Source: Acidobacteriota bacterium (GTDB lineage: Bacteria > Acidobacteriota > UBA6911 > RPQK01 > JAJDTT01). From it: a stretch of DNA of 64,000 bases. The DNA lies in contig OZ253580.1 of NCBI GenBank assembly GCA_965263035.1, positions 2,240,001 through 2,304,000 of the forward strand. Reading direction: 5' to 3'. The notes beneath the pieces were generated by a model. It ran no database searches. It saw only the letters and a program-made list of their open reading frames with translations, and was not told where the DNA came from. Shown piece after piece: positions 38,178-62,299 of the stretch (position 1 is its first letter; every line of letters starts with the position of its first letter). Position numbers and translations under genes: made by a program.

Positions 38178-38298
38178 GATGGTCTACGTCTTCAGTAATT
38201 GTTCCCTGAGAAGGGGACAGTCACGTTCTCGCCCCGTTCAGGACACAAAGCGGAGCGGCAAAAGACGGGAGAAGGGGGACAGTCAGTTTCCGCCCCGG

Positions 38299-40299
38299 TC
38301 AGGACACGCCTGCGCCCAGCAGGAAGTTGATTTCGTCACTCAACTTCTGCGTCAGGTCCACGTCCGAATCGAACCCCACGTGGCGGTACTGAATCCGGCC
38401 TTCCCGCCCGATGAGCACGATCGTCGGTATCGCTGACACTCCGAATTCATCGTCGACCTTGCCGTCTCTGGCGACCGGAAAATCGTATTCGTTCTTCTTC
38501 ATGAACCTGCGGACCATGTCCGCATCCTCGTCCACGCTGACGGCGAGAAAAACGACTTCAGGCCGGTCCGACCACCGATCGACCGTCGCCTGGAACTGGG
38601 GAAGTTCCTCGACACACGGTCCGCACCACGTAGCCCAGAAATCGAGGACCACGACCTTTCCCTTGAGATCCGCCGATCTGACGCTTTCGCCACCCAGAGT
38701 CTTCAGATTGATTTCCGGTGCCTCGCCCGAGGAAAGCCCGCGCGCCCGCAGTATTGCCTCGTCCAGACTGAGCGCGGTTGGAGCGCCAACAGCCACGCTC
38801 CCTTCGGTCTTGGCCTGAGTCACGTGGTCCAGGACATACTGGTTCAGACCGTCAATCGAACCGTGCACCTTTGCGAACAGGGATTCCAGGGGTTTCCGCG
38901 CAGGATCGTGCAGATATTCAATCAGGGAACTCGCGTAGTGCTTCAGTGCCTCCTGGTGCTGCCCGGTGACTTCGTACGCGGCGGCAAGTTCAAGATGGAT
39001 CAGGTCCCCCGCTCGATCCCACACGCCTACCACGGGCAGAAGCACGGCGATTGCCTCCTGGTGTCTCCGATTCTTGTTGAGCACCTTGCCCAACTCGTAG
39101 GAAACCCCGGTTCGCACTTGTCCCCCCACTTCTTCCAACAGCTCACGGCTCGGCTCACTGCTGGTGAATAGAACGGTCCCGTGGACACTGTCCGGGTTCG
39201 CGAAATCGAGGGCTCGTTCAAGGAACCGGATGGCAAGCTCCGTCTGCCCCTCCTTCGCGTAGTGGACTGCGACTTGCGTGTATGCCATCGGATTCGGATA
39301 TCCCGATTCCAGGAGTTCCTGCACAAGTTCCTCTTCCTTCCGAGCCTCTCCAGACTTCCAATAGAGATTGAACAAGGCTTGGTAAGCATAATTCTTGAGC
39401 CTCTTGTCATCCGGGATTTCTTCTTTCTCCAGGCACTCCCGGGCGAGGGCTTCCGTCTTCTCCGGATCCGTTTCCACGTAGTGTTTCAAGAGGTAATCGT
39501 AGACGTGCACAATATTGGGACCCGTGGGGTAATCTTCGATGAAGCGATTCCAGAGCCGGACCTTCTGGTCCTGGTCCTCCAGGGATTCCGCCATCTCGTA
39601 CAGGGCAAGGCCCCCATTGCGGGGGTCGGATCTGAACCGCTCATAGATTTGCTGCAAGAGACTTGCGGCGTCGGTGTCCCGCTCAGCCTTCTCGTAGGCG
39701 CGCATGAGACCCCAATAACCGCGGGCGACGTCCGGCAACTCTGAGATCATCTTCCGGTAGGCGGCGATTTCGTTCTCCCGGCGGCCCATGCGACCGAAAG
39801 TTCGCGCCAGTCCCCGATGGCCCAGTTCACTCGTGGGCTCAAGGGCAAGGACCCTCTGGTAGTTGGTCAATGCCTGGTCGAAGGACCGGCGGTCTTCCAG
39901 CAACTCACCCAGACCCAGGTAGCCCCAGGGGGAGCCGGGATCCAACACGATCGCCTTCTCGTAATGGGCCTGCTTCGCGTCGCCCTCGGCGACTTCGCCG
40001 AGCAGGTAGTGGAAGACGGCACTGTCCGGATTCTCCTGGACGCGCCATTCGTACTCTTGGCGCAGCAGTTCCTTGTCTTCCGTGAGGCGGATGATCTCGC
40101 GGTGCGCTTCGGTGAACTCCGGGTCGTGTTCGACCGCTTGCCTGCAAAGCTCCAAAATTCGATCGGAATCGTCTCCACGATCGAGAGACATGGCCTCCAG
40201 ATAGAACCTCTGGGCCGTCTGCGGATCAGGAGTAGTAGTGCCGGTGCAGGATAAGCCGATGACAAGAAGTGGGCAGCAGAAAACCTGGATCAGCCTCAT
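38299..40299 (-). CDS. TPR-repeat lipoprotein with C-terminal TlpA/ResA thioredoxin domain
   Basis: Lipobox LSC, TPR helices, VLDFWATWCGPC. Confidence 0.88.
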   Translation of the reverse strand: MRLIQVFCCPLLVIGLSCTGTTTPDPQTAQRFYLEAMSLDRGDDSDRILELCRQAVEHDPEFTEAHREIIRLTEDKELLRQEYEWRVQENPDSAVFHYLLGEVAEGDAKQAHYEKAIVLDPGSPWGYLGLGELLEDRRSFDQALTNYQRVLALEPTSELGHRGLARTFGRMGRRENEIAAYRKMISELPDVARGYWGLMRAYEKAERDTDAASLLQQIYERFRSDPRNGGLALYEMAESLEDQDQKVRLWNRFIEDYPTGPNIVHVYDYLLKHYVETDPEKTEALARECLEKEEIPDDKRLKNYAYQALFNLYWKSGEARKEEELVQELLESGYPNPMAYTQVAVHYAKEGQTELAIRFLERALDFANPDSVHGTVLFTSSEPSRELLEEVGGQVRTGVSYELGKVLNKNRRHQEAIAVLLPVVGVWDRAGDLIHLELAAAYEVTGQHQEALKHYASSLIEYLHDPARKPLESLFAKVHGSIDGLNQYVLDHVTQAKTEGSVAVGAPTALSLDEAILRARGLSSGEAPEINLKTLGGESVRSADLKGKVVVLDFWATWCGPCVEELPQFQATVDRWSDRPEVVFLAVSVDEDADMVRRFMKKNEYDFPVARDGKVDDEFGVSAIPTIVLIGREGRIQYRHVGFDSDVDLTQKLSDEINFLLGAGVS

Positions 40300-40833
40300 G
40301 GTAGACCTCCGTAGCAGTCTGTAGCGCCGGTCCTGGGCAGGTGGGAACCGGTGTGAAAGCCAGTTGTGTCCAAGATAGCACCATGGACATCGGGGAGGTA
40401 CTGGCCGGAAAACGGCACGTCGTTTGTACGTGAAAATTCCGTTCTATTGGCACGTGTTCGATCCGGACAACGAGCTGGGATGGAGCTGTACCTGTCGCCC
40501 GCCGTGGAGCAGGCGGTGAGTGGACAGATCCACCAGGTTCAGGAGAGTGGCTCTCTTGACGCGTCCACAGTACTTCTCCTCGGTCTCGACGGTGAGAAGT
40601 TGCTTACCGTTGATCGTATTCCCTCTCCTCCATTGTGGTTCTCCTCTGGTACTCGACCTGATCGGTAGATTGCGCCACCCCTTTTTGATGTCGTAAAAGG
40701 GCATGGAGGTTCACTTTGGGGGCGAGGATCACCCGGATAGAGAAGGCAACTGGCCCCTTCTCCCCAACCTCTTGCAGATTCGCGTCAGATAAGGCTGCCA
40801 AACCGAGATAGGTTGGCGGTCACCACTTGCCGA

Positions 40834-41294
40834 TCACAGAATAGCGTTCAAGTCGTCAAGGAGTACCATCCGGTCATCCAGCTCCTGGACTTGATCGGCA
40901 AGACGCTTGGCCCTTGAAATCAGATCCTGTGCTGCCTGTCTCTCTCCCTGCAACGCCTTGGCGCGTGCGCTCGCCTCGTAGCCATAGCCGACATAGTAGG
41001 GAGGCAGATCGTTGGTCTCACCGACCTCGACACATCGCTGCGCGAAGTATTCCGCACGCTCCGGAAGTCCCGCAACGGCGTAGACACGAGCCAGCTGCCA
41101 GGTCCCAATTGCGATGTTCAATGGTGTGTGATCCTCAACCTGATTCCAATGCCAGAAGGAAGCATGGGACACACGTGAATCATCTCTTCAGCTTCGTTGG
41201 CGCTGAGCTCCGGCTTACGCAGGTACTCCCACGTCTTGTTGAAGCAGGAAGCGGCCAACCTGCGGTGAGTCAGATTGTCTGATTGATCGTTCAT
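40834..41294 (-). pseudogene. Helical hypothetical protein, frameshifted by an extra GT near 41172
   Basis: MNDQSDNLTHRRLAASCFNKTWEYL...EEMIHV, then a shifted frame SHASFWHW...WQLARVYA. Confidence 0.7.
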
Positions 41295-41393
41295 GTCGTC
41301 TCCAATGCATGGGCTTGGAACGAGCGCCTGTGAAAAAAGGTGACAGACGAGCGGAGAACGTCGGGAGAACGTGACTATTCCCTTTTCGCTCGA

Positions 41394-43673
41394 TTAGACG
41401 AGACTCCGATAGCGATCCAATGCGCGTCTTGCCATGCCTGCTGCCAAATGTTTTGAGACCATCCTGAAGGCGTTGTCCAGTCCCCAAGCGTATCCGAGAT
41501 CGACGATCGCCTTTCCACAAGATTCAATGACCCTACGTTCGGGAATCTTAACTCTGTTTGCTAGCTCAACGAGTTCATGGATTCGCTTTCCGTCCGGAAT
41601 CACAACAGGTGCACAGCACTCGATCGCCCTCCCCATCATGAGGGTCGCCAGGCGCGCCGATTCGGCTGGAAGCTGCTCCCAGTGATTCCAAATAATTGGG
41701 GCACACTTCATCTGCTTGGCGTGGTCGAGCACCCGAAAGCACGCGACCGCATCCAGAATCCGCTCGCTCGGCAACACTCCCACGTAGACCGGACCGTGCA
41801 CAGTCTCAACACGGAAACCAAAATCGGTTGTGTTCCGGCCCGAGCAGCCGAGGACGACCGGCTGTCCGCCACTCAATGCGACAGGAATGGGCTTCAGTAC
41901 CTTCCCCTGCCTTGGGCGCTTGGGTTTTTTGGAGGACGGGATCTTGGACCAGTCGAGCGGCTCGCCGACCTTGGCCATATCGAGGTCTATCACGTAGATG
42001 CTTCCGGCCTTGCAACATTCGGACAGAGGCAGTGAGGTCGCAGAACCCGCTAGCCTAGCCGAAAGCTCAGTGCCGTCGGGAGAGAACGCGAAGGGGTGGG
42101 TCTTACGGCGCTTCACATCGCAATGGAGCGTGCAGAGACTGAAGAAGCGGTTCTCCACCGCTCGCAGCCGGAGAATCGACGACCACTTGATATCAGACAC
42201 GTTGTCGAAGCTCGGATTGACCCACAGGCGTGCGCCGCGTCTCGCGAGAGCCCTGGGAAAGAGCCCGAGATAGTGATCATGACAAATCGTTGCACCGGCC
42301 GTTGTGCCGCCCAGTTCAAAGGTCGGGAGCACAGAGTTCGGCTCCCAGTCCGGCCGCTCGAAAGCCACGGCATCGGCGGTGGAGTGTTTCGTATACACGC
42401 GGGAGCGGGAGCCGTCGGGATCGAAACGGAGAAGAACCTGCCAGGCGCGGTCAGTGGAGTCGACGGTTCTGTCGACAGCACCCACGAGAAGCGGTGCGCC
42501 CAGTTCTGCGGCCAGCTTGGTCAGTGATTCGGAGCGTTCCTGGTCGGACGCCGAGATGTAGCCTTCGGGAAATAGCGCGAAGTCGAGGTCCTCGCCGGAG
42601 AATGAATCGACTGCCGGTACGTCCGGCTGTTGGGCACCGGCACCGGTCGGCGGAACGCCGTTCGAGGCTCTTTGGGCGACTTGAGGAAACACCATCGCCA
42701 CGCTCAGGGTCGATTCCGGTCGTGTGGCAGGGGAGCGGATTCCCACCGGTGTCCGACGGAACCGAGAGCCCCCCTGATGGATCAGGTCCGAGAAGCGCTC
42801 CCGGTCTTCCCTGCTGTCCGGATCGAGCGAGCACCAGACCCGGTCGCGGGCGTAGAGCCGCACTGTTGGCCGCAAGTCCATGATCGACGGGACGAGATCC
42901 CGCAGTGTGTCGTACCAGGCCCGTTGTTCGTCGCGGAAGGGAGGATCGTTGTCCCTCGCATCGTGCTGTTCGCAGAGGTCCAGCCAGCGCCTCGCGGAGA
43001 ACCCCAAAGGGTGCGCGTCCGCGTAGACGGAAAGGGCGAGCCTCCGCGGGCTCGTGAAGTGCTGGCTCTCATCGAACTCGATGAGAAATCCAGGGTCGGG
43101 GACCCAGTAGTCGCAGCCTGCCAGCACGTCGCTTCGCACGAACGTGCCGATGCCGTATCCGCGATAGCTCTCAAGGACCCCGGCCACCTCCCGAAGCACC
43201 AAGTCGATCGAGGTTCCCTCGTAAGCTGCGAGCCCAGTCTTCCATCCGAATCTGTGGTCGGACACACACGCTCCGTAGATACACTCGAGAAGTTGCCCGA
43301 CCCGGATCTTGCAGGCGCGACACCGCTCGGAGTGGCGCCTAGAGGGAATCGTACCCGGCCCCCTCACCGATGGAGGGGATACAAGCGTGACGCAGACGTT
43401 GCGGATGCTACCGCCGCAGTCGCACTTGGTCACGGCGAAGCCGCGGCTCCGGAGAAACTCATTGGACTCCAGGCCTCCAGAGAATCGACCCGCGCTCAGC
43501 AACTCGCCCGTGGCGACCTGATGGGCCAGCGAAATCGTGTATTTCGGGGGCAAATGCTCGCCCTTCGTCGTCAAGCAGTAGCTTCGGCCCCTTCTTTGCC
43601 GTGGTACCCCGTCACGGATGATGAGCCGTATAGCTTCCTCGATGTGTGCCCTCGTGATGCGCCTTGGGATCAT
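41394..43673 (-). CDS. Multidomain protein: McrA/McrB-type N-terminal head + PD-(D/E)xK-like nuclease + carbon-nitrogen hydrolase (nitrilase) domain
   Basis: ITRAHIEEAI...YCL...LPPKY...FSGG...FLRSRGF; DYWVPDPGFLIEFDESQHF...QRAWYDTLRD; LFPEGY, YTKHS, ICHD, RAVENR. Confidence 0.8.
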   Translation of the reverse strand: MIPRRITRAHIEEAIRLIIRDGVPRQRRGRSYCLTTKGEHLPPKYTISLAHQVATGELLSAGRFSGGLESNEFLRSRGFAVTKCDCGGSIRNVCVTLVSPPSVRGPGTIPSRRHSERCRACKIRVGQLLECIYGACVSDHRFGWKTGLAAYEGTSIDLVLREVAGVLESYRGYGIGTFVRSDVLAGCDYWVPDPGFLIEFDESQHFTSPRRLALSVYADAHPLGFSARRWLDLCEQHDARDNDPPFRDEQRAWYDTLRDLVPSIMDLRPTVRLYARDRVWCSLDPDSREDRERFSDLIHQGGSRFRRTPVGIRSPATRPESTLSVAMVFPQVAQRASNGVPPTGAGAQQPDVPAVDSFSGEDLDFALFPEGYISASDQERSESLTKLAAELGAPLLVGAVDRTVDSTDRAWQVLLRFDPDGSRSRVYTKHSTADAVAFERPDWEPNSVLPTFELGGTTAGATICHDHYLGLFPRALARRGARLWVNPSFDNVSDIKWSSILRLRAVENRFFSLCTLHCDVKRRKTHPFAFSPDGTELSARLAGSATSLPLSECCKAGSIYVIDLDMAKVGEPLDWSKIPSSKKPKRPRQGKVLKPIPVALSGGQPVVLGCSGRNTTDFGFRVETVHGPVYVGVLPSERILDAVACFRVLDHAKQMKCAPIIWNHWEQLPAESARLATLMMGRAIECCAPVVIPDGKRIHELVELANRVKIPERRVIESCGKAIVDLGYAWGLDNAFRMVSKHLAAGMARRALDRYRSLV

Positions 43674-43777
43674 TGCCTTCTTCAGTCACATTGGAGATTC
43701 AGATCAGTCGCTCGCATCAAGTACGAACCGGTTGAAAAATACTCTCGCGAGTAAGAAATGGTGACTGTCCCCATTTC

Positions 43778-43960
43778 GATCCCCTTCTCGCGGGCGATCA
43801 GAATCCAGCGTCGAGCATCGTCCGGCCGGATTTGCTCTCCGTCGATCAGCTCGGGATGCTCCGCGATCAGCTCCTGGAGATGGTACTCGTCACCGAATGC
43901 CTCCTCTTGTACTCCCTCCAGTGCTCCCTTCTGACCTCTTATCCATATTCGCTCAGCCAC
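43778..43960 (-). pseudogene. N-terminal 61 codons of a NucS-like/PD-(D/E)xK hypothetical protein, cut at a family-2 hairpin
   Basis: RBS AAGGAG + GTG; MAERIW...EYHLQELIAEHPELIDGEQI...WILIAREKGI runs directly into the repeat. Confidence 0.65.
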
Positions 43961-44169
43961 AGCGTGCTCCTTGGTTTGGTACGCGACGACATGGTAGTCC
44001 GCCGTGGCCAACTCGGCCAGTTTGGGCAATCCAACTTGTCACCCCGACGTTAAACGCGTAAATCGGACTTTTCACCGTTTTCCCGGGGGAGGCCCACGCA
44101 GCCATGTACCGGACGCTGTAGATTGAGGACACGAGAACGTGACTGTCCCGTTTTCGGTCCCCTTTTCGC

Positions 44170-44236
44170 GCGCGCTTCGTCCTTTGAAGAAGAGGAAGGC
44201 TACATTGACCGCTTGAACTTGGAGGATTACCACTGA
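44170..44236 (+). pseudogene. 3' tail of a HigB toxin
   Basis: FEEEEGYIDRLNLEDYH* with the stop overlapping the higA ATG; the rest is replaced by hairpin 44133. Confidence 0.7.
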
Positions 44237-44571
44237 TGGCGACCAATGGCATCAAAGTGAACATGACCCCTTCCCATCCGGGCGACTTCATCCGTACGGA
44301 GGCCATTGAGGAATTGGGTCTGACCGTGACGAAGGCGGCGCAGACCCTGGAAGTTCGCCGGGCAACGCTTTCGGACCTGCTGAACGGCAAGGCCGCGCTC
44401 TCGCCGGAGATGGCGCTACGCATCGAAAAGGCCTTTGACGTGAGCATGGATATGCTGCTGCGGATGCAGGCCTGGTACGACGCCTCGCAGATGCGTGCGC
44501 GCGCAGGCGAGATCACCGTCCAGCGCTACGTGAGATTAGAGAAGGTGACTGTCCCCCTTCTCCTGCAGTGA
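44236..44571 (+). CDS. higA: HigA antitoxin (orphan); C-terminus reads through a family-2 hairpin
   Basis: PSHPGDFIR, LGLTVTKAA, LSDLLNGKAALSPEMALRIEKAF, MQAWYD. Confidence 0.88.
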   Translation: MATNGIKVNMTPSHPGDFIRTEAIEELGLTVTKAAQTLEVRRATLSDLLNGKAALSPEMALRIEKAFDVSMDMLLRMQAWYDASQMRARAGEITVQRYVRLEKVTVPLLLQ

Positions 44572-44690
44572 AGATCGTGAATCTGACGCCACGTCATTTG
44601 CTGGGTGAAACAGTCATGCATCGTTGGATCTTTCCCACGTTCATTATCTCGATCCGGTCACGGCAGCCAGGGGTGGCAGGTCGCGTTTGG

Positions 44691-46768: not shown

Positions 46769-46860
46769 CGCATATCTCCCTCGGCGTCCGGATCTCGACT
46801 CCTGCCACCGTGGCAACGGCGATATGCAGGCCGTCGGCCAACACTCGTGAGCTGAGCGTA
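46763..46860 (-). pseudogene. Internally deleted PIN toxin remnant
   Basis: LADGLHIAVATVAGV joined directly to EIRTPREI*. Confidence 0.55.
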
Positions 46861-46880
46861 AGCAAAGCGAGAATTGCGGT

Positions 46881-48118: not shown

Positions 48119-48224
48119 CGTACGGCCTCCGCTAGTTCGTCAAGTTCGGTCGTGTCAAGCAAAGCGAGAATGTGACTATCACCATTTTCTGCTCTGGCCT
48201 CTTCTCTTGCCCTCTCGCCTGGTT

Positions 48225-50421: not shown

Positions 50422-50739
50422 ATCGTTTGGCCGCCGGCATTACGTCGATCTGGACCGCGCTCGCCAGCCCCTTTGTCCTATATGACCCGCGAACCGCAAT
50501 TTTGTGAACCCACAAAATCCGTCTGGACCGCAAAGCATGGTTCGTCGGAGTGAGTGATGAACGTGACTGTCCCCTTTTCCCGGTCCCCCTTTTCCCGCTT
50601 GACATGGTTCCCCCGGCGGCGAGAGATTCGGCAGGTTTTCGGTCGGCGCCCGGATGGACCTCCTTGGAGCGCCCGGTGTGGAGGCGCGTGAAAAGTAGTA
50701 GGGATTACAGACTGGGCACTGATAGGTTACACTTTACAA

Positions 50740-51323: not shown

Positions 51324-51409
51324 CCCGCATTCCTCACCGGGGGACGCGAAAATCGCACAGGACTTGTGCCCTCAGGAACGAATAGAGAAGGTAACTACCC
51401 CCTTTTCCC

Positions 51410-51602
51410 GCTCCCTTCCCAAACCGATCTTCCCGAACCCTGGCCGCGCATCCAGCCAGCACCACTCCTGGGATCTATGCGCCCGAACAGCACGGCCTGT
51501 ACGACGGCACATCATCATCTCGGGAAGCTGCATCAATCACCCCGGCACGCTGAACGATGTTAGTTCGTGGGACTACATGAGAAACGACGGATCGAATCTG
51601 CG
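51410..51602 (+). pseudogene. Degenerate copy of the 5' part of the lipoprotein gene at 33368
   Basis: Aligns by eye with about 33445-33636 (GATCTATGCGCCCGAACAGCACGGCCTGTACGACGG, GGCACGCTGAACGA, GACGGATCGAA); bounded by hairpins 51385 and 51610. Confidence 0.8.
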
Positions 51603-52009
51603 AACGAGTGACGAACGTGACTGTCCCCTTCTCGCTGATCCGGTTTGTCGAAGCCAGGATCAACCGCTCGACTAATCCCTCAATCTTCGACGGGGCAGGC
51701 TCCTATGAAAAGATTGCAATCCAGTCCAAAAGACCAAGAGCAGGAGGACACGGGCGTTTTCCGCCGTAACTGGGAGTGTCGGAAAAGTACATGTTACCGA
51801 TAAACTACCTTGGTATTATCACTCCGCGCCACAAGGGTCCAACGATCAAGATCGTTCTGATCCACGGTTCTTCGGTATGCTGGCGCGTCAAACAGACTCG
51901 CGGCAATTGGACGCCATGAACAAGGGGCAAACTACTTCCGGATGGAAGATAACGATCCCGCAAGCGGCTTCGTTCATTCTTGCGGGTATTTATCTATCTG
52001 GGTTCCTAG

Positions 52010-53774
52010 CCTGCATTTCTCATCAGTAGAACAATAAACGGAAGTTGAACCGTCGTCTGGGTGATTCTTTATCCATACGAGTTCAAGAGGCAGTTTTCGT
52101 GCTCGAACGTGCCGACCAACGGCCAGATGCAGCGCTTCTCCAGAGCCTTTTGACGCCCATCCTGCGCTTCTGAGCGACGACTCTCGACCCGGTGCCCACT
52201 CCGGGGCGCAGTCCATCCTGGGGACTCCCAAGTCGCCATCGTCCAAAGAGTTCTTTCCATCCGTTGCTAACAGCGAAGCGGGAGGGCTTGCACTTGCGTC
52301 AGAGCCGTCCTCAACAGCGCCGCATACGGATAGCTCTCGGAAAAGGACAACCAGACCTTGCGGCTGGTGATCCGGACCTGTGCCCCGATCTTCAGCAATC
52401 TCACCCGCAGGGTCCAGCTCTGCGCCCGCGCCAGCTTCGTCCCCGCCAGCCCCACCCGTCGCAACGTCTCCATCATCACGTAGGCGAATGCCGAGAAATA
52501 CAACCGCAGTTGATTCCCCGCCAGCTTCCGGGTCGACGTGCGGTCCGCAAACAGACCCATCTGCTGTTCCTTTATCCGATTCTCCATGTCTCCCCGCGCG
52601 CAGTAGACCTCCTCGTACAATCTTCGCCCATCGCATTCCTGGACCGGGACCGAAGTCACGATGAATCGCGGGTTCTTTCCCCGGGGCAGGTGCTCCACCT
52701 TCGCCACCACCCGGCGCTCGCACGACCAACTCTTGTGCGTCTGATAGCGCAGTTCCTGGAACTGCCTCACGGCCTTCCCGATCGCCCGCTGCAACTGCCG
52801 GACGGTCTCCATCCGGGTCGCGATCCTCCGCTTCAGCCGATCGTTCTGCGCCAACCCCAGGACGTAATCGATCCCTTCCTTCTCGCACCAGACCATCAAC
52901 TCGTCGTTGGAGAAGGCACTGTCCCCTCGAACCGTGATCCGCACCTGGGGCCACGCTTCACGCAGCCGCCTCACGATTGGTTCCAACTCCGCCACCACCC
53001 CGTGGGCCGCGCCTCGATCCGCCGTGCGCAGCCGCGCACGCAACAGGTGTTCCCCACAGAAGACGTACAGCGGCAGGTAGCAGTAGCGTTTGTAATAGCC
53101 GTGGAAGAACCGTCCCTCCTGCTTCCCATGCAGCGGATCGTCCGTGGCGTCTACATCCAGGATCACCTCCTCCGGGGGCTCCGGATGCGCTTCCACAAAC
53201 ACCTCCAGCAGCAGCTCGTCCATCCCCGCCGGGTCGGCCACGATCTTCTTGTACGCGCCCTCCGGTCCCTCCAACGGAGTCCGCTCCAGTCGGTTCAGGG
53301 TGCTCTTGCCTGCCAGCGGCTTGCCTCGATCCGACTCCACGCGCCGGAACTCCCCCGTCAGATCATCTCGATCACACAACAGCGCCAAGAGCCGGTCCCG
53401 GCACAACTCGTCGTGGTCGTTGAGGTCCTCGTAGCCCAGGCACAGCCCCAGCACCCGCTGTTTGATCAACGCCTCCACCGGGTGTTCGACTCGATCCGAG
53501 TCTCGATAGTCGGTGAAGCATTCGCTCAGACGACCCAGAATCCGGGTCCGCTGCTCCACTTCGCGCAGGAGCACGCCACCGGCGTCGGAGGTGATCTCGC
53601 CGCCGTCGAACCGGCCCACGACATCCCGTCCGTCCAGGCCCTGAAATCTGAGCTTTATTCTGGTACACTCTGCGGTCATAAGGTCGCGTCCCTTCTGCTT
53701 TGTAAGTTATTGATTACACAACACTTATAGCAGAAAACGCGGCCTTTATCAATCTTTCTGATGAGATATCCGGG
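52010..53774 (-). mobile_element. IS1380-family element, 1765 bp, CTAG target duplication
   Basis: Inverted repeats CCTGCATTTCTCATCAG / CTGATGAGATATCCGGG; CTAG at 52006-52009 and 53775-53778. Confidence 0.92.
52267..53679 (-). CDS. IS1380 transposase (DDE_Tnp_1_4)
   Basis: FDGGEITSDAG, GYEDLNDH, LAGKSTLNRLE, LDVDATDDPLHG, RGDSAF, RGDMENRIKE. Confidence 0.95.
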   Translation of the reverse strand: MTAECTRIKLRFQGLDGRDVVGRFDGGEITSDAGGVLLREVEQRTRILGRLSECFTDYRDSDRVEHPVEALIKQRVLGLCLGYEDLNDHDELCRDRLLALLCDRDDLTGEFRRVESDRGKPLAGKSTLNRLERTPLEGPEGAYKKIVADPAGMDELLLEVFVEAHPEPPEEVILDVDATDDPLHGKQEGRFFHGYYKRYCYLPLYVFCGEHLLRARLRTADRGAAHGVVAELEPIVRRLREAWPQVRITVRGDSAFSNDELMVWCEKEGIDYVLGLAQNDRLKRRIATRMETVRQLQRAIGKAVRQFQELRYQTHKSWSCERRVVAKVEHLPRGKNPRFIVTSVPVQECDGRRLYEEVYCARGDMENRIKEQQMGLFADRTSTRKLAGNQLRLYFSAFAYVMMETLRRVGLAGTKLARAQSWTLRVRLLKIGAQVRITSRKVWLSFSESYPYAALLRTALTQVQALPLRC

Positions 53775-54821
53775 CTAGGGCTCAATGTCCACTTGGGCAA
53801 GCATGGAGTTTTCGATTTCGATCTTGCTAGTTCGCGCTACCTAATAGTCGGGGTTCTCTTCTTTTCGTTCCTTGTTTTTTGGTACCTCTTTGGCGGACGA
53901 GCAATAATTTTTGGAACGAAGCGTCTCCGCAATGAACTAGCCTTAGTGGAAAGGTCAGACTTGGGTCCTGTTTGGAAAGGTCTGTCTTATGTAAATTTTC
54001 TCATCGAACTTACATTCCAACACTTATTATCGGCTGCGCTCTTTTCACATCTAATTTTGGGGGACAAGGAGCCAACGTGGTTTTTACGCTATTTGATCGT
54101 CCTCTTCTTAATCTTATATCCTTGGGATTCTCTAAACCTTGACCGTCGGTTCCCACGCGCGCACCAAATATTGAATTTGACAACAAAGACTTCTGCAATC
54201 CTCTTATTCTTAATAACGATTACACTACTCTCGCCAACGTCAATTGTGCTCATCAATTTTATTGTAATGACATTCTATGCCAACCTCGTTCTCGATTCAA
54301 TGGAGAGATTTAAAATTACGGTTGATACGTTAGTTTACGATATTACATATACCCTAATCTTCGTTCTTCTGTTTTCGGCGGCGTTTGGCGCGGCACATTA
54401 TGAACATATCACATCTGCCTTCGGCGGCGGACAACTTCAGCCGGTCGAAATCATAGTTGCCGACCAGACAACACGGGAGGGCCTCGATGCCATGGGTTTT
54501 AGAGTAACACCGTTGCTCAAAGCCGAACTCATTCACGAAAACCATCAGGAACTTATCGTTGGTGTAGAGGGCCAGACAATTCGATTGCCTAGAAAGGCCA
54601 TTTCGGGAATAAAAGTGGCACCTGTTGAAGACATCCATTGGATCCTTAAATTTTTGACTCAGGACGCTCCGCTCGGCCGTGAGCTGGAAGGCAGCGCTAA
54701 ACCTACACCTCCGACGGATCTAGATTGAACCAACGACATCGCCCAATACTGTGCTTGGCACACCTAAATCCAGTTAAAAACGTGGTGATCCAGAAGGGGA
54801 CTGTCCCCTTCTCTTCCCTTT

Positions 54822-55082
54822 GGCGCCTGGGCGGACACTACGACGCCTTCTATCCGTATCTACAGGGGACAGGCACAGGAGGCTGAAGAGCATGATGCCG
54901 AACTCCACACCTCCGGCATCCTCAAAATCTACATTCAGGACTTCCTGAGGTAACTCATGACGTCACGGACGGAGGGAGCGGATTTGCAGGAGCGCATGGC
55001 CGCCCTGAACTGGATTGGCCAGCTCTTCTTTGGCAAGCTCTGGAACGTCTTCGCCAAGCATTTCATCGAGTACGGACCCTGA
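54822..55082 (+). pseudogene. 3' remnant resembling the C-terminal domain of GMC/cholesterol-oxidase- or patatin-associated proteins
   Basis: WADTTT...GILKIYIQDFLR*LMT...ERMAALNWIGQLFFGKLWNVF; begins right after hairpin 54792. Confidence 0.55.
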
Positions 55083-55093
55083 GGAGGAGTGGA

Positions 55094-56458
55094 ATGAAAA
55101 TCATTCTGGTTCCGCACACTCCATACAAGTATCGGGCTTCGGTTTGGGCAGCAGCGGTCGGAACCGACAGCCCTCCGCAGGGCCTCATCATCACCCTGCA
55201 GCCTGAAGGCAGGTCTATTGCCGTCTCAGACAGGTCCTGGCGAAAGCTATCGTACTCGGAGGCAAGTGGGCACAACGTCTTCGTGCAGGTTATCACCGTG
55301 CGGGATTTGGAGCCGGGAAGGAGATATGAGCTGACATCGCACGGAGGAAGCAGAGCCAGGATTTCCACTCTGCCTTCCTCACTGCCCGAGGAAGGAGGGA
55401 GGCCTTTCACGGTTCTTCTGGGATCCTGCTTTCACCAGGGAACCGACCAAGAGGGACAATACGGAAGGGCCGTCAAGTTGCTCCCAGAGGAACAGAAGCC
55501 GGACCTGAAGATTCTGTCTGGAGACCAGGTCTATCTCGATATCCCGATCTTTACAGTGAAAAGGGCGAAAGAGAAGCTTCTGGCAAAGGACTTCATGGAG
55601 AAGTATTTGAGAAGCTGGACGCAGAGGGGGAGTCTCGGCGAAGGCTTTCTGAGCGTCCTCGAAACCGGAGGCACCTTTTTTACTGCCGATGATCACGAAT
55701 TCTGGAACAACTACCCAAACTGGACAACCCTCATCCCTCTCTCTTGGACCAAGTCAGGACGCAGAACGTGGCAGAGGGTGTCCAGGACCCTCTATGGGGA
55801 CTTTCAGTCAGATGACCCGGCGCAGACAGGCCGCTGCCGGCGCTTTGATGTTGGCGAGCTTTCGTTTTTTATTGCAGACACACGTTATTTTCGGGAAGAA
55901 GGCAATCAGCGTTTCATGAAGGATTGTGACATGTATCAGCTTGGAGTCTGGGTGAGAGGGCTGGAGGGACCGGGTATTCTGGTCGTGGGTCAGCCCATCT
56001 TTGACGGGCCCTCAGGCTGGTTCAGCTCAAGGTTCGAAGACCGCTCTCTTGCGGACTACGAACAGTACCAGGAGCTGGTGAAGATCCTCCATGAGAGTAC
56101 CCACTCGATAGTTCTGATGACTGGCGACGTGCACTATGGCCGGGTGGTATCCGTCTCCCTTAACATCAGGCCGGAGCCGATCAAGATCATCGAAGTCATC
56201 TCCTCGCCTACGTCTCTGGTTAATCCCTTTGTCGGCGGAAGCGCGAAGGACCCGCCCGAAAAGTTCCCACCCGTAGCGATTCCAGGAATTGTTCCCTCGG
56301 CTCCCACAAATCACTACATGACAGCAGAGGATAATTTCGCCACCCTTCATTTCACCAAACGGGGAGGAAAGGTCCGGATGAGGATTCGGTACTGGTTTCC
56401 GAAGCAGGCGTCAGCGAGTGTTCTGGCAGGACACTGTCTACCACCCTTGGATCTCTGA
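55094..56458 (+). CDS. PhoD-like metallophosphoesterase without signal peptide
   Basis: LLGSCF, SGDQVYLD, ADDHEFWNNYP, IADTR, TGDVHYGR. Confidence 0.85.
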   Translation: MKIILVPHTPYKYRASVWAAAVGTDSPPQGLIITLQPEGRSIAVSDRSWRKLSYSEASGHNVFVQVITVRDLEPGRRYELTSHGGSRARISTLPSSLPEEGGRPFTVLLGSCFHQGTDQEGQYGRAVKLLPEEQKPDLKILSGDQVYLDIPIFTVKRAKEKLLAKDFMEKYLRSWTQRGSLGEGFLSVLETGGTFFTADDHEFWNNYPNWTTLIPLSWTKSGRRTWQRVSRTLYGDFQSDDPAQTGRCRRFDVGELSFFIADTRYFREEGNQRFMKDCDMYQLGVWVRGLEGPGILVVGQPIFDGPSGWFSSRFEDRSLADYEQYQELVKILHESTHSIVLMTGDVHYGRVVSVSLNIRPEPIKIIEVISSPTSLVNPFVGGSAKDPPEKFPPVAIPGIVPSAPTNHYMTAEDNFATLHFTKRGGKVRMRIRYWFPKQASASVLAGHCLPPLDL

Positions 56459-56467
56459 GGAAGAACT

Positions 56468-57229
56468 ATGATCTCATCACGACAGTCTGTTGCGGCCGAG
56501 CCAAATCCCGGTCTGAAGCCGGAGTCGCGGGAGCAGGCAGAATCGAATGCGGGATGGCTCGAACGCGTACTTGGAGACAAGAAACCCGAGGGCTGGATTT
56601 GTCTTTTCGGCGGCGCCAATCTGACGGATTTCAGGTTGCGGGTGGCTCAGTCGCATGTACGAAATGACCTGCTGCCGAGCTTCTGGTCCCATGTCGCCAT
56701 TGTCGAGAGCGCGAAATCGGATTCTCCGATGGAGTGGAAGCTTGACGAGGTGAGACTGGACCCCTTCTTGGAGGGATTTGGAAACGTTGCTGCAAACAAC
56801 GGCGTGCAGCAGAGTAGCTTCAGCCGCTACGACGATCCCGGCCTTTTCCCCAACATCGGGATCGTTAACTTTCACGTTGATGCTGAACTCATCAAGGAAT
56901 CCAAGGACAAGTTCAAAAGTCAGCGCAACCTTATCGATGTTCCGGGGCTGATGGTTGATTGGCTAGCTTATGCCTGGGGCGTGGCGGACCGCGGCAATCC
57001 TCTCCTCAAGGCAGTCGGAATACCTAGTGCGTCGTTTGTCGAGGGCGTCTTTGCAATTGCCGGGTTGGATCTCACCCCAGGGCTGTCCGCCAGGTCAAGT
57101 TGCCCGGAGGCAATCTGGCAGGCTGCGAAGTGGTGGCACCGGTTTTACTCCTCTGAAGCAGGCCTCACAAAGAGGGCGCCGGAAGGCTGTTACGCCATAG
57201 GCCAGGAAGCCGCAGCAGTCCTCATGTAA
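56468..57229 (+). CDS. Hypothetical protein, possibly circularly permuted papain-like (YiiX/NlpC-P60)
   Basis: WSHVAIV (His) precedes SSCPEAIWQA (Cys); 9 bp downstream of the phosphoesterase. Confidence 0.6.
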   Translation: MISSRQSVAAEPNPGLKPESREQAESNAGWLERVLGDKKPEGWICLFGGANLTDFRLRVAQSHVRNDLLPSFWSHVAIVESAKSDSPMEWKLDEVRLDPFLEGFGNVAANNGVQQSSFSRYDDPGLFPNIGIVNFHVDAELIKESKDKFKSQRNLIDVPGLMVDWLAYAWGVADRGNPLLKAVGIPSASFVEGVFAIAGLDLTPGLSARSSCPEAIWQAAKWWHRFYSSEAGLTKRAPEGCYAIGQEAAAVLM

Positions 57230-57350
57230 CCAAAGAAAGAGATTCTACCGCAAAGAGCATGGTGCAACCGGTCTATTGATCTGATTTGAACGCGCAGGCG
57301 CGAAGATGACTGTCCTCTTCTCCCGTTATTCTCGAAGCGGCAGGTCCTTA

Positions 57351-58442: not shown

Positions 58443-58696
58443 GGCAGTTCAGAACAGACTGTCGAGTTTGGCACATTTGTGAAGATATGAATCGGCTGAG
58501 ACGACAGTACGGATACTTGGTACGACTTCCGCTCACCCCTCATTACATGTGCGCGGCAATAAGTTAGCTCAGCCGCGTTCCTGTCCACATGCGAATGTAG
58601 CGATCAAGCTGCTTCTTGAGGCCAGCGCACACCAAATCAATATCGTCGCTGTTCAAAAAGCAGTAGAGAAGGCAACAGCCCCCTTCTCCCGCGCTA

Positions 58697-60178
58697 TCAG
58701 GCAATGATCTCGTGCACGACGTTGCCGTGGACGTCGGTCAGGCGGAAGTCGCGGCTGTTGTGGCGGAAGGTGAGCCGTTTGTGATCCAGGCCCAACAGGT
58801 GAAGGATCGTGGCGTGAAGATCGTGATGCGAGACGCGGTCCTTGATGGCGTGCATGCCGAGCTCGTCGGTGGCGCCGTGCGTGATCCCCGGCTTGACGCC
58901 GCCGCCCGCCATCCACATGGAGAAGCCGTAGTGGTGATGGCCGCGCCCGAGGGTTGTTTTGGTCAGCGTCATATCCGACTCCTCCATCGGCGTGCGACCG
59001 AACTCAGTGGCCCAGACGACGAGCGTCTCGTCGAGCAGACCGCGTGACTTCAGGTCCATGATGAGGGCCGTGATGCCGCGGTCGGTGCGCGCGGCGTTCG
59101 TGCGGTGGTTCTTGATGAGCCCGCCGCGGTTGCCGTGCGCGTCCCATAGCCGTCTGGGGGCGCCGTCGAGAATCTCCACGAAACGGACGCCGCTCTCCAC
59201 CAGCCGTCTCGCCGTCAGGCACTTCCTCCCGAAGTCGGTGTCGCCGTAAAGCGCCTTCACCGAGTCCGGCTCGTTACGGATATCGAAGAGCTCCGGCGCT
59301 TCCATCTGCATGCGAAACGCCGTCTCGAATGCAGCGATGCGCGCGTCGAGCTCGGGCTGCGTACGATGCCTGCCGCGATGGAGGCGATTCAACTTCCGCA
59401 CCAGATCCAACTGCTCGCGCTGCCGGTCTCGGCTGAGAAACGCCGGCGCCTTGATGTGCGGCACCGGTGGATTTCCGGGCTTGGCGTCCGCCAGCGTAGC
59501 CTGGTGGATACCAGGGAGGAATCCGGCATCGTGAAGCGCGCGCCCGCCGGACGGACGGCCGTCCGTCATCGCCACGAATCCCGGCATGTTCCGGTTCTCC
59601 GTCCCCAGCCCGTAGGTCACCCACGAGCCAAGACTGGGGTGGCCCTGCCTGGAATAACCCGTATGCATGAGGATCTGGCCGGGGCCGTGAATCGCTGAAT
59701 CGGTGTGCATCGAGTTGATGAATGCGATGTCGTCGACCACCTTCGTCAGGTTCGGGAAAATCTCGCTGACCCACGCGCCGCTCTGGCCATACCGCTTGAA
59801 GGAAAACACCGGCGGAACGATGCGCGTGTTGGTGTACGTCTTCTCCGGGTTAAGGCCTTCCAGGTCTTCTTTGGAGAAGATGTCTCGTGCCAATCTTCCG
59901 GCGTACTTTTTCAGAAGCGGCTTGTGATCGAACGTCTCAAGCTGACTCGCGCCACCGACCATGAACAGGAAGATGACGTTCCTCGCCCTGGGGGCGAAGT
60001 GTGGCTGCCTGGGCGCGAGTGGCTCGCTGAGGTCACCCGCCGGCACGGCCGCCGCACCGCTCGCCGTCTGGTCCGCGATCAGGCTGGCCAGCGCGATGCC
60101 GCCCAGGCCGAGTTCCTTGAGGAACCCACGGCGGTCCCAACCAACCGGTCGAGCTTCGTAGCCTGCGTTGGTGAACAT
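58697..60178 (-). CDS. DUF1501 family protein, copy B
   Basis: DRRGFL, GGASQLETFDHKP, YGLGTENRNMP, TEFGRTP; 493 aa. Confidence 0.93.
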   Translation of the reverse strand: MFTNAGYEARPVGWDRRGFLKELGLGGIALASLIADQTASGAAAVPAGDLSEPLAPRQPHFAPRARNVIFLFMVGGASQLETFDHKPLLKKYAGRLARDIFSKEDLEGLNPEKTYTNTRIVPPVFSFKRYGQSGAWVSEIFPNLTKVVDDIAFINSMHTDSAIHGPGQILMHTGYSRQGHPSLGSWVTYGLGTENRNMPGFVAMTDGRPSGGRALHDAGFLPGIHQATLADAKPGNPPVPHIKAPAFLSRDRQREQLDLVRKLNRLHRGRHRTQPELDARIAAFETAFRMQMEAPELFDIRNEPDSVKALYGDTDFGRKCLTARRLVESGVRFVEILDGAPRRLWDAHGNRGGLIKNHRTNAARTDRGITALIMDLKSRGLLDETLVVWATEFGRTPMEESDMTLTKTTLGRGHHHYGFSMWMAGGGVKPGITHGATDELGMHAIKDRVSHHDLHATILHLLGLDHKRLTFRHNSRDFRLTDVHGNVVHEIIA

Positions 60179-60270
60179 GGATGAACCCGCTCAGGCAAAA
60201 GACGGAATGGCAAGATTGTACAAGAGAGAGGAGGTGACTGTCCCCTTCTCCTGATAGATCTCCATGTGAA

Positions 60271-60575
60271 TCAGATCAGGTCGTCCACGTCGACGCCGAG
60301 CGCCTCGGCGAGCGCGGCCAAGGTTCGAGCCGGGCCGGTGCGGACGCCCCTCTCGATTTGCGACAGATAGAGTGGGTTGATCCCAGCGGCACCGGCCAGC
60401 TGATTCTGGGTCATGCGGCGATGGTCCCGGTATACCCTGACGGCGTTCTCTCCCGCCAGAAGGCGATCCGCCAACTCGATTGGAAAAGACTCTCCCCCCA
60501 CAGACTTGGCGTGATCGTAAAGCTCTTCGTTGGTTAGGCCCGCGGTGACATCCAACATCGCCAAGCGAGTGTACT
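60271..60575 (-). pseudogene. XRE HTH antitoxin-like gene lacking its N-terminus, bounded by hairpins 60228 and 60581
   Basis: GENAVRVYRDHRRMTQNQLA..AGINPLYLSQIERG; the frame begins at the repeat. Confidence 0.7.
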
Positions 60576-60633
60576 CGAGAGAGGAGGTGACTGTCCCATT
60601 CTCAGTTCCCTTCCCACACGGAAGACGGCGGCA

Positions 60634-60683
60634 GGGCGATTAGAAATCGCCCCTCCTCGGCGGCAAGAAAGCCGCCGCTCCCG
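60634..60683. repeat. REP family-1 pair
   Basis: GGGCGATTAGAAATCGCCCCTCC, CGGCGGCAAGAAAGCCGCCGCTCC. Confidence 0.8.
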
Positions 60684-60739
60684 CGCGATGCCGCGCAGGG
60701 CCGTGAGGGTGTGGCCAGCCCTAAATTGACAGTACCCGA

Positions 60740-62221
60740 TCAGGCAATGATGTCGTGCACGACATTGCCGTAGACGTCGGTCAGGCGGAAGTCGCGGCTG
60801 TTGTGGCGGAAGGTGAGCTGTTCGTGATCCAGGCCCAACAGGTGGAGGATGGTGGCGTGGAGATCGTGATGCGAGACGCGGTCCTTGATGGCGTGCATGC
60901 CGAGTTCGTCGGTGGCACCGTAGGTGATCCCCGGCTTGACGCCGCCGCCCGCCATCCACATGGAGAAGCCGTAATGGTGATGGCTGCGGCCGAGGGTTGT
61001 TTTTGTAAGCGTCTTATCCGCCTCCTCAAACGGCGTGCGACCGAACTCAGTGGCCCAGACGACGAGAGTCTCGTCCAGCAGGCCGCGTGACTTCAGGTCC
61101 ATGATGAGGGCCGTGATGCCCTGATCGGTGCGCGCCGCGTTGGTGCGGTGGTTCTTGATGAGCCCGCCGCGGTTGCCGTGGGCGTCCCATTGCCGCCCGT
61201 GGGCGCCGTCGAGAATCTCCACGAAACGGACGCCGCTCTCCACCAGCCGTCTCGCCGTCAGGCACTTCCTCCCGAAGTCGGTGTCGCCGTAAAGCGCCTT
61301 CACCGAGTCCGGCTCGTTACGGATATCGAAGAGTTCCGGCGCTTCCATCTGCATGCGAAACGCCGTCTCGAATGAAGCGATGCGCGCGTCGAGGTCGGGC
61401 TGCGTGCGATGCCTGCCGCGATGGAGGCGATTCAACTTCCGCACCAGATCCAGTTGCCGGCGATGCTGTCCTGGGCTCAGAAAGGCCGGCGCCTTGATGT
61501 GCGGCACCGGTGGATTCCCGGGCTTGACGTCCACCAGCGTGGCCTGGTGGATACCAGGGAGGAATCCGGCATCGTGAAGCGAGCGCCCGCCGGACGGACG
61601 GCCGTCCGCCATCGCCACGAATCCCGGCATGTTCCGGTTTTCCGTCCCCAGCCCGTAGGTCACCCAGGAACCAAGACTGGGGTGGCCCTGTCTGGAATAA
61701 CCCGTGTGCATGAGGATCTGGCCTGTGGAGTGAAGCGGTGAATCGGTGTGCATCGATTTGATGAATGCGATGTCGTCGACCACCTTCGTCAGATTCGGGA
61801 AGATCTCGCTGACCCACGCGCCGCTCTGGCCATAGCGCTTGAAGGAGAACACCGGCGGAACGATGCGCGTGTTGTAGAACGTCTTCGACGGGTTGAGGCC
61901 GTCCAGGTCTTCTTTGGGAAATATGTCTTGTGCCGCTCTTCCGGCGTACTTTTTCAGAAGCGGCTTATGATCGAACGTCTCAATCTGACTTGCGCCACCG
62001 ACCATGAACAGCAAGATGACGTTCCTGGCCCTGGGAGCGAAGTGTGGCTGCCTGGGAGCAAGCGGCTCGCTGAGGTCTGCCCCCGGCACGGCCACCGCAC
62101 CGTTCGCCGTCTGGTCCGCGAGCAGGCTGGTCAGAGCGATGCCGCCCAAGCCGAGCTCCTTGAGGAACCCCCGGCGGTTCCGACCCACCGGTCGAGTTTC
62201 ATTGGCTGCGTCAGTGAACAT
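60740..62221 (-). CDS. DUF1501 family protein, copy A
   Basis: 493 aa, colinear with copy B with scattered substitutions. Confidence 0.93.
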   Translation of the reverse strand: MFTDAANETRPVGRNRRGFLKELGLGGIALTSLLADQTANGAVAVPGADLSEPLAPRQPHFAPRARNVILLFMVGGASQIETFDHKPLLKKYAGRAAQDIFPKEDLDGLNPSKTFYNTRIVPPVFSFKRYGQSGAWVSEIFPNLTKVVDDIAFIKSMHTDSPLHSTGQILMHTGYSRQGHPSLGSWVTYGLGTENRNMPGFVAMADGRPSGGRSLHDAGFLPGIHQATLVDVKPGNPPVPHIKAPAFLSPGQHRRQLDLVRKLNRLHRGRHRTQPDLDARIASFETAFRMQMEAPELFDIRNEPDSVKALYGDTDFGRKCLTARRLVESGVRFVEILDGAHGRQWDAHGNRGGLIKNHRTNAARTDQGITALIMDLKSRGLLDETLVVWATEFGRTPFEEADKTLTKTTLGRSHHHYGFSMWMAGGGVKPGITYGATDELGMHAIKDRVSHHDLHATILHLLGLDHEQLTFRHNSRDFRLTDVYGNVVHDIIA

Positions 62222-62299
62222 GGATGAACCCGCTCAGGCTAAAGACGGAATGGCAAGAATGTACGGGAGAAAAGAGGTGATTGTCCGCTCCCACGGAGG

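Follow-up and report, generated by a model that had tools for sequence, protein, structure and literature searches.

The role of repetitive extragenic palindromic (REP) repeats and of their domesticated RayT transposases is a long-standing question. As set out in part of PMC3390384, each REP family has one REP-associated tyrosine transposase (RAYT), and REPs mostly occur as inverted pairs that mark stable regions, variable DNA forming "REP deserts". Part of PMC6006769 adds that several REP families, each paired with a RAYT of its own, may coexist in one genome, and describes a rare Class 3 of TnpA_Y1 enzymes in Acidobacteria and Planctomycetes, which have several close copies and high-copy flanking structures and stand as an intermediate between insertion sequences (ISs) and REPtrons. 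Here, starting from a 64,000-nt stretch of an Acidobacteriota genome (contig OZ253580.1, positions 2,240,001 to 2,304,000; hereafter the window), we describe a REP/RayT pair tied to hypervariable, polar arrays whose module boundaries appear to be the repeats themselves. On balance, we favor the reading that a 24-bp repeat found in the window is the REP family of a 311-residue RayT-like Y1 transposase, and that this enzyme makes the junctions between the cassettes. Throughout, positions in the window follow its 64,000-nt numbering, G000 is the window's own genome, and G001–G008 and further G numbers are its relatives, represented by one genome per species and including several metagenome assemblies; breakpoints are the ends of BLAST blocks shared with these relatives.

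Scanning the window with the 23-mer consensus GAGAAGGTGACTGTCCCCTTCTC, and calling a copy at ≥17 of 23 matches, yielded 15 motif copies between 38208 and 60603; two degenerate copies lie at 38270 and 62271. This bears out an initial annotation, made from the letters of the window alone, which had reported about 15 hairpins with a conserved loop. Chance would give 0.53 occurrences of the loop word TGACTGTCC; the window has 10, a number reached in none of 100 shuffles. All copies are on the + strand except for the pair at 38.2 kb, the same pattern that had been described from the letters. The copies, and a half-repeat lying among them, are as follows:

38208–38230, − strand: motif copy (22/23) marking the array's left edge, in the opposite orientation to the + copies.
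38270–38292, − strand: degenerate motif copy (15/23), in which the TGACTGTCC core is exact.
40740–40762, + strand: motif copy (20/23); a block of G006 begins 6 nt off.
41365–41387, + strand: motif copy (19/23), left end of the CN_hydrolase cassette.
43755–43777, + strand: motif copy (19/23) with arms GAAATGG/CCATTTC.
44133–44155, + strand: motif copy (20/23), after which its right arm is repeated (ggtCCCCTTTTC).
44539–44561, + strand: motif copy (19/23); blocks of six relatives stop 7 nt before it.
46850–46866, + strand: left-half remnant, made up of the left flank as at copy 48166 (AAGCAAAGC) and GAGAAT, followed by unrelated DNA.
48166–48188, + strand: motif copy (17/23); blocks of G004 and G003 begin at 48167–48179.
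50557–50579, + strand: motif copy (19/23); a 70-nt indel of a close strain begins at 50580.
51385–51407, + strand: motif copy (19/23).
51611–51633, + strand: motif copy (20/23).
54791–54813, + strand: motif copy (21/23), a nearly perfect palindrome.
57300–57322, + strand: motif copy (20/23).
58666–58688, + strand: motif copy (19/23).
60228–60250, + strand: motif copy (22/23); a single left flank is joined to four differing right flanks in five genomes.
60581–60603, + strand: motif copy (21/23).
62271–62293, + strand: degenerate motif copy (15/23); a second REP family, GGCGACAAGAAAGTCGCC, has two copies after it, at about 62305–62350.

Relatives carry the motif or a diverged palindrome at the position orthologous to 38208, and the left-half remnant coincides with block starts at 46867–46869.

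The motif is a compact, imperfect palindrome of 24 bp, consisting of an A followed by the 23-mer. In a sequence logo of the 89 copies scoring ≥19/23 across the genome, conservation is restricted to these 24 positions and the flanks carry no information, indicating a compact site and no piece of a longer repeat, in keeping with the outcome of comparing the 400-bp flanks all against all. The left arm is far more variable than the center and right arm. The conserved core is GACTGTCCCCTT, and only this core is kept in the sister family: G023 belongs to another family of the order, and its motif has the form TAAATGGTGACTGTCCCCTTCTC or GAAATCGTGACTGTCCCCTTCTC, with the core intact and a left arm that is not complementary. 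The conserved entity is the sequence GACTGTCCCCTT with its neighbors, and the imperfect palindrome is its arrangement in the window's genus. The covarying stem that had been proposed from GAGAAGG/CCTTCTC versus GAAATGG/CCATTTC did not hold up when 205 copies from eight genomes were counted, the pair at 43755 being a single case. Watson–Crick counts at all seven pairs equal the expectation under independence; G6, for example, is replaced by C in 47 copies while C18 is unchanged.

The genome G000 is a single contig of 6.2 Mb with 62% G+C, and the 89 copies compare with none in a shuffled genome. Eighty of them fall outside called genes, though called genes (from a rough home-made caller) cover 85.5% of the genome. 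At ≥18/23, 71 of 100 copies fall in 11 runs of at least three, nearly all co-oriented, and an A9 variant (TAACTGTCC) predominates in one array. With up to two mismatches, the 23-mer is present in all eight same-genus genomes (10–56 matches each), in none of six sister-genus genomes, and in one of 16 others of the order. The GTAG/CGTC end tag is not conserved across the 89 copies (A at position 0 in 57, T at position −1 in 24), and GTAG is seen only in a subset, such as the copies of an array at 1.94 Mb. As an observation on the chromosome, cumulative GC skew is lowest near 2.87 Mb and peaks broadly at 5.5–5.9 Mb, where a 13-copy array (5.548–5.559 Mb) is located.

The initial annotation had guessed that an enzyme acting in trans, a Y1/HUH transposase resembling RAYT, serves the repeat, and had suggested looking for such a gene flanked by the motif. 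A gene of this kind exists outside the window. The lead was a Y1_Tnp gene of G023 (Pfam E = 5.4e-9, 36.6 bits) flanked by inverted motif copies. G000 encodes four full homologs of 311 residues, at 800924, 1560688, 1832165, and 5961195, with 81–85% identity and none in the window, and every genome of the genus has the gene (3–12 matches each). The four G000 copies are modules of 1.15–1.2 kb, 90–97% identical and set in unrelated contexts; the motif lies at the upstream boundary in four of four, in the form GAAAAACAGACTGTCCCCTT and inverted relative to the gene, and at the downstream boundary in three of four. Across 12 loci from 12 genomes and four genera, the core is found on one side of the Y1 gene in 11 of 12 cases and on the opposite side in 9 of 11; the copies are inverted and face outward throughout. 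In the sister genus, a Y1 protein with 53–56% identity is flanked by AGTCTGTCCCCTTCTC.

The 311-residue protein matches Pfam Y1_Tnp at 29.1 bits (cut-off 23) and NCBIfam REP_Tyr_transpos at E = 2.6e-12, covering positions 3–145 of the 146 of the profile. It contains NHFH and a tyrosine within LYVELNAVRAG; we take HFH and this tyrosine to be the HUH and catalytic-tyrosine motifs, and H63, H65, and Y162 are invariant in 11 sequences. The family has 650 relatives at E ≤ 1e-10, and relatives of the protein are labeled "REP element-mobilizing transposase RayT" by JGI. The core 11-mer ACTGTCCCCTT occurs in 26–119 copies in all 10 genomes with a Y1 homolog of ≥74% identity and in at most 13 copies in the other 21, with a reversed-word control giving at most four; since these genomes are kin, the association is a pattern and no statistical test. 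G016 is a single row in each of these 31-genome tallies, and no claim depends on it. Taken together, we are highly confident that the repeat family and the 311-residue gene form a REP/RayT system.

Two distant genomes show the core in other settings. In the 3.4-Mb genome G023, most of 86 core copies lie within ~70 kb around one Y1 gene (G023:C1:1.42-1.49 Mb; L071, L097, L100, L121), and they are often tandem units of 30–220 bp and not between genes. In G029, where the Y1 query had no match at E ≤ 1e-5, there are inverted, REPIN-like core doublets 54–75 nt apart (C3:349247/349316 and C4:471049/471123).

Other enzymes were tried as partners and rejected. A first genome scan with Pfam Y1_Tnp returned only a 224-residue RayT-like gene (G000:C1:2482813-2483487) and a pseudogene, missing the 311-residue family; in nine loci of the 224-residue gene, the motif is absent except for a weak match within the gene's 3′ end. 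This gene is flanked in G000 and G003 by the second REP family, GGCGACAAGAAAGTCGCC, which has ~300 unevenly spread copies at up to three mismatches. A TnpB element in the 1.94-Mb array is not the owner of the repeat, as the 1247-bp unit stops well short of the repeats on either side. Among tyrosine recombinases, with 27 Pfam hits in the genome, a 334-residue protein was set aside: its gene beside an array is itself cut by a repeat, and its other full copies have no repeat within 1.5 kb. These recombinases form solitary modules of 1.0–1.05 kb in unrelated contexts (G000:C1:2087369-2088337, 5656001-5656966, 3683196-3684164, 5547290-5548260, and others), and a near-palindrome reminiscent of a dif-type site, TACGATAAAGTATATTATACGTA, precedes each of them.

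We then compared the array of the window with those at the same chromosomal site in relatives. The part of it that falls in the window, and the cassettes discussed below, are:

38208–64000, + strand: hypervariable array, running on to window-equivalent 70.8 kb.
41365–43749: CN_hydrolase cassette (gene 41394–43673, − strand), found in G005 alone among the relatives compared, elsewhere in the array of that genome.
51408–51610: mini-cassette, a 190-bp gene fragment (51413–51602) with a motif on either side.
54784–57322: cassette of a PhoD-like gene and a 253-residue open reading frame, 98% identical in G007.

Five further + copies of the motif lie beyond the window end, up to window-equivalent 70.8 kb. 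A repeat array occupies this site in all eight genomes (the window genome and seven relatives), and its flanks are syntenic in the seven relatives at 82–92% identity; the conserved flank genes are a DUF1553/DUF1501 pair at 28–32.5 kb, a TPR-thioredoxin gene at 38.3–40.2 kb, and the genes from 70.9 kb. Over the eight orthologous arrays, 115 of 125 copies share one orientation, at a median spacing of 1415 bp. G+C content in 2-kb windows is 0.51–0.63 inside the array versus 0.59–0.68 upstream. The TPR and thioredoxin-like gene (38299–40191) lies between inverted motif copies at the left edge of the array; it is doubled in G005 and G001, where the second copy is 80–81% identical.

BLAST blocks against the seven relatives define 73 distinct breakpoints inside the array. 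For 20 of these, a repeat edge is at most 10 bp away; random positions would give 1.8, and 2000 randomizations gave at most nine. The excess persists on a local scale: of the 43 breakpoints no more than 150 bp from a repeat, 20 come to within 10 bp of it, versus about six expected. A breakpoint within 10 bp is found at 16 of 19 repeats. Several breakpoints that count as distant are at degenerate copies (48166, 62271) or at the left-half remnant (46861), which the threshold missed. Block order is shuffled between species, with one to four order breaks per genome, and block orientation is kept in 101 of 103 cases; the two reversed blocks are an IS. In 16 clusters, the same left flank and repeat are joined to unrelated right flanks, the most extreme case being one left flank with six different right flanks across five genomes; the reverse arrangement, a shared right flank, accounts for seven clusters. 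Individual cassettes end with similar precision. In G000, the two ends of the CN_hydrolase block are 0 and 6 nt from motifs, and in G005 they are 0 and 19 nt away; the cassette 54784–57322 stops exactly at the last base of the motif at 57300–57322. With block ends at the repeats, shuffled order, and constant polarity, the cassette mosaic that had been read from the window alone finds good support between species, and the repeats are probably its junction sites.

Most of the truncated genes that the initial annotation had named at the repeats were not recovered by profile searches. The fragments called NucS-like and GMC/patatin-like, and the tail of an open reading frame near 58660, match no Pfam family at E ≤ 1, except for a single chance-level hit on a 63-residue frame. 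What had been called an HTH fragment (60271–60558) contains a complete HTH_3 domain (profile 2–55 of 55). The supposed DUF1553 tails at 60228 and 62272 are likewise mistaken: the DUF1553 gene reads on to a stop at 62431, with its PSD1 domain aligned over 243 of 244 positions, and each of the two DUF1501 genes is preceded by ~50 nt of homologous leader sequence. The fragment between 51385 and 51610 is real: it is the 190-bp piece of the mini-cassette, which derives from a paralog of gene 33368–34120 and is 77–79% identical to part of that gene.

The pattern extends to other arrays of the genome. In the second array (5.548–5.559 Mb), block ends lie 0–9 nt from repeats at five places, and its cassettes are reordered in G007 and G002, all in the same orientation. 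The cargo in the window includes HigBA and a Schlafen/AlbA_2 protein. Diverged paralogs of the latter lie in further arrays, in G003, G007, and G008, where their polarity relative to the repeat is unchanged. The 1.94-Mb array (G000:C1:1940001-1960000, L032) has cargo of the defense type, encoding a Septu PtuA-like ATPase (E = 1.7e-137), the A and C components of PDC-M55, and a GmrSD_N protein, together with the TnpB element and P450, radical SAM, and GNAT genes. None of the genes examined between inverted repeat pairs resembles a recombinase.

Genes of further mobile elements are also truncated beside repeats. The 334-residue recombinase gene has lost its last ~11 codons at repeat 5548266 (cut at residue ~323 of 334), and a fragment of the same gene (residues 145–254) begins 41 nt past repeat 1954556. 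A TnpB fragment, from residue 143, stops 4 nt from repeat 2397612, and an IS fragment stops 8 nt before repeat 5967550. Many copies also show their own right arm and 4–10 flank bases repeated in tandem 3–10 nt after the motif, each with the variant of that copy (window 44156–44167 and 50580–50600; G000 3957565, 11979, and 5558912). Relatives contain 27–40-nt insertions of half or whole motifs, and in some, whole repeats are locally duplicated. The tandem right-arm duplications may reflect slippage or repair of enzyme nicks.

A mechanism of the following kind would account for these arrays. IS200/IS605 transposases cut single-stranded DNA and rejoin its ends. The Y1 enzyme would act similarly, in trans on single-stranded DNA, cutting and rejoining it at the repeats, and a segment between two co-oriented repeats would behave like a non-autonomous unit of IS200/IS605 type. 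Such a unit could be lifted out, lost, duplicated, or set beside another repeat, always with constant polarity, and one-ended or aberrant events would leave genes truncated at repeats, half-repeats, and short right-arm duplications. Cutting and rejoining of single strands at co-oriented repeats would explain the co-orientation, the polarity, and the exact junctions. Moreover, the Y1 gene lies to the left of both of its flanking repeats, and it is the left flank that tends to stay linked (16 versus seven clusters); both fit a repeat that is the right-hand end of the unit on its left. Whether the Y1 enzyme itself makes the array junctions strikes us as finely balanced, tilting slightly toward no. 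We put forward only tentatively the broader model in which a RayT-type HUH transposase and its REP constitute a gene-cassette platform, with repeat-ended genes excised in single-stranded form and re-inserted beside another repeat.

Several observations weigh against an active enzyme at these junctions, or against this enzyme as the one responsible. In a strain ~99.5% identical (contigs of run X1), the cassette order is the same over 44.7–58.4 kb, and assembled contigs of public runs, four of which were compared, gave no direct sign of activity. Strain order is thus the same and species order shuffled, which places the turnover as slow among strains and plain among species. Crossover mapping showed that right arms weakly track right flanks (~5% mismatch versus ~14% background in 14 pairs), and left-arm variants track neither flank, so that no crossover point is fixed. 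Known Y1 enzymes usually read a hairpin. Many copies here are weak as single-strand folds and their arms lack covariation: the predicted single-strand DNA energies of six window copies range from −1.9 to −8.4 kcal/mol, and two of the six are no more stable than shuffles. The orientation of the arrays does not agree with replichores defined by GC skew. The repeats that flank Y1 genes are a sub-variant (GAAAAACAGACTGTCCCCTT) sharing only a 12-nt core with the array type, and the single co-oriented copies in hypervariable arrays (115 of 125) are the opposite of canonical REPs. As for the protein, its NCBIfam score of 46.8 is under the equivalog cut-off of 80, its AlphaFold model is poor (pLDDT 51, with the catalytic half below 50), and sequence and profile searches of solved structures returned nothing credible.

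The explanation that best survives alongside ours is that the repeats are passive, that is, neutral or selfish copies spread by the Y1 enzyme into dispensable DNA of horizontal origin that is turned over by other processes. Horizontal transfer with homologous recombination in the flanks and illegitimate recombination would then shuffle the genes, and repeats would insert at the same intergenic spots. The stability of the array in the ~99.5% identical strain speaks for it, as does a lone copy that lies between two convergent genes within ~150 bp of inserted DNA, compared with 18–26 bp at this place in relatives; a repeat is evidently able to arrive without a gene. The second REP family is likewise unevenly spread, and 53 of the 73 breakpoints lie more than 10 bp from any scored repeat. 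However, several of these distant breakpoints are at degenerate or half repeats, and breakpoints at 0–10 bp exceed chance even when the comparison is limited to the 150 bp around repeats (20 of 43 versus about six). Passive copies also sit poorly with a single left flank and repeat that meet up to six unrelated right flanks, and with polarity kept in 101 of 103 blocks, as unspecific rearrangement should invert about half. We therefore regard passive repeats as unlikely, yet worth serious attention.

Recombination of duplex DNA at the 23-bp site, as at the core site of a tyrosine recombinase (of the integron, Xer/pdif, or lox-like kind) exchanging double-stranded circles, would match the architecture of the motif: inverted arms of 7–9 bp around an asymmetric, strongly conserved center. 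The co-oriented arrays with their kept polarity, the 334-residue tyrosine recombinase gene adjoining the 5.548-Mb array, and the A9 variant prevailing in one array are also what it would lead one to expect. Nonetheless, the motif-flanked gene is a Y1 transposase and no recombinase, and the adjoining recombinase is cut by the repeat, while no repeat lies within 1.5 kb of its five other full copies in G000 or of the six in relatives. Only fragments of this recombinase are present in G005 and G004, the left arm in G023 forms no inverted repeat, and an integron integrase exceeds the cut-off in none of nine genus genomes. A duplex recombinase is accordingly very unlikely to be the agent. An enzyme-free origin, in which replication stalls or nucleases cut at a fragile palindrome and end joining or slippage follows, is in our view highly improbable. 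It would accommodate the tandem duplications of right arm and flank bases at many copies, the half-sites, and the duplicated whole repeats, but the arms span just 7–11 bp, with the weak predicted folds given above, and the same motif beside many unrelated genes, the constant polarity of the blocks, and the tie to the Y1 gene would go unexplained. Finally, a functional RNA or terminator hairpin at gene ends, suggested by the 80 of 89 intergenic copies and by copies lying 7 nt past a stop codon (41365 and 5549104, for example), can hardly be sustained given the lack of covariation, of a T run after the stem in the flank logo, and of any Rfam family matching the motif, the occurrence of both orientations relative to the neighboring gene, and the loss of the left arm in G023 with the core kept.

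Returning to the close strain, two differences fall within the array. A 70-nt replacement starts at the base after repeat 50557–50579 (runs X1 and X2), and one IS of the window is missing (run X1):

52006–53774: insertion sequence with a DDE_Tnp_1_4 transposase (470 residues) and at least 13 other copies at 97–100% identity.

The absence of this IS from the strain points to its recent activity. Three candidate joints (53418/60225, 58750/60824, and 60681/62301), with sides of 21–30 letters, were dismissed as repeat artifacts. Outside the array, the stretch 32543–33225 is a repeat of ~650–680 bp with more than 20 copies in the genome at 92–100% identity, also present in relatives. It sits between the DUF1501 gene and the next gene, is missing there in relatives, and looks like a small non-autonomous mobile element.

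If the reading that we favor is right and the Y1 enzyme makes the junctions, HUH transposases would provide a second, independent route to integron-like capture and shuffling of genes, one covering toxin–antitoxin and phage-defense genes. The arrays would then be a functional analog of integrons built on another enzyme class, and would give REP/RAYT systems a cellular role; REP-bounded arrays could be mined as reservoirs of accessory genes in little-studied phyla. The system lends itself to direct testing, with a 24-bp site, a 311-residue protein, and natural arrays in at least nine genomes.

How, then, does this system compare with those already known? Like integrons, it has a co-oriented array of exchangeable cassettes at a fixed site, mostly modules of one or two genes, with content that varies between species and toxin–antitoxin and defense genes in the cargo. 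The term integron-like, applied by the initial annotation, does not fit in the strict sense, as there is neither an IntI nor a site of attC size. With the IntI model TIGR02249, none of the nine genus genomes exceeded the 265-bit cut-off, the best score being 80.8 bits. Integron attC sites measure 55–140 bp and have paired R and L boxes, whereas the site here is 24 bp without such boxes, genes lie on either strand, and the enzyme is of the HUH kind. Short sites bounding modules are also known from pdif, the 28-bp XerC/D sites in alternating orientation that bound exchangeable modules on Acinetobacter plasmids, and from the dRS3 repeats and Neisseria intergenic mosaic elements (NIME), which form mosaic intergenic arrays; to our knowledge, neither has been linked to cassette arrays like these. 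According to part of PMC3733652, dRS3 belongs to the CGTC-tagged REPs.

The IS200/IS605 family and palindrome-associated transposable elements (PATEs) share with the present system a Y1 HUH transposase. The left and right ends (LE and RE) of IS608 bound a unit by repeats of one orientation, and the cassette units described here are bounded in the same way. The Y1 unit itself is a multicopy module of 1.15–1.2 kb (90–97% identity) that ends at the motif on one side. In contrast to IS200/IS605 elements, the cargo comprises ordinary genes of many kinds and not tnpA/tnpB, and the flank logo reveals no conserved cleavage tetranucleotide; Pfam and NCBIfam both place the 311-residue protein nearer RayT than IS200. 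Class 3 TnpA_Y1, as described in part of PMC6006769, resembles it in occurring in Acidobacteria, in its several related copies, and in its high-copy flanking repeats. The signature given there, Y----Q and NHVH, does not fit the protein, which has YVELNA and NHFH, and cassette arrays are absent from that part of its description.

The closest match is REP/RAYT (REPtron, REPIN). Common to both are a short, imperfectly palindromic extragenic repeat in ~100 copies, its 24 bp lying within the 20–40 bp usual for REPs, a Y1/HUH RayT-like gene between inverted copies of its own repeat, and several REP families each with its own RAYT, the second pair here being the 224-residue protein and GGCGACAAGAAAGTCGCC. 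Our search found no published description of REP-bounded gene-cassette arrays, with the proviso that the supplementary species lists of PMC6006769 and PMC3733652 may include the family. The differences lie in organization and gene content: the fixed-spacing inverted doublets of REPINs are not the arrangement here (inverted core doublets were seen only in G029), there is no family-wide GTAG/CGTC tag, the 311-residue protein has ~130 extra C-terminal residues, and each genome has 3–12 matches to the gene, versus the one described in part of PMC5581495. RAYT genes are typically single-copy and inherited vertically, which the near-identical modules in unrelated contexts seen here are not. The system is thus of the REP/RAYT type, a known kind, with an unusual organization in which single co-oriented REPs delimit cassettes.

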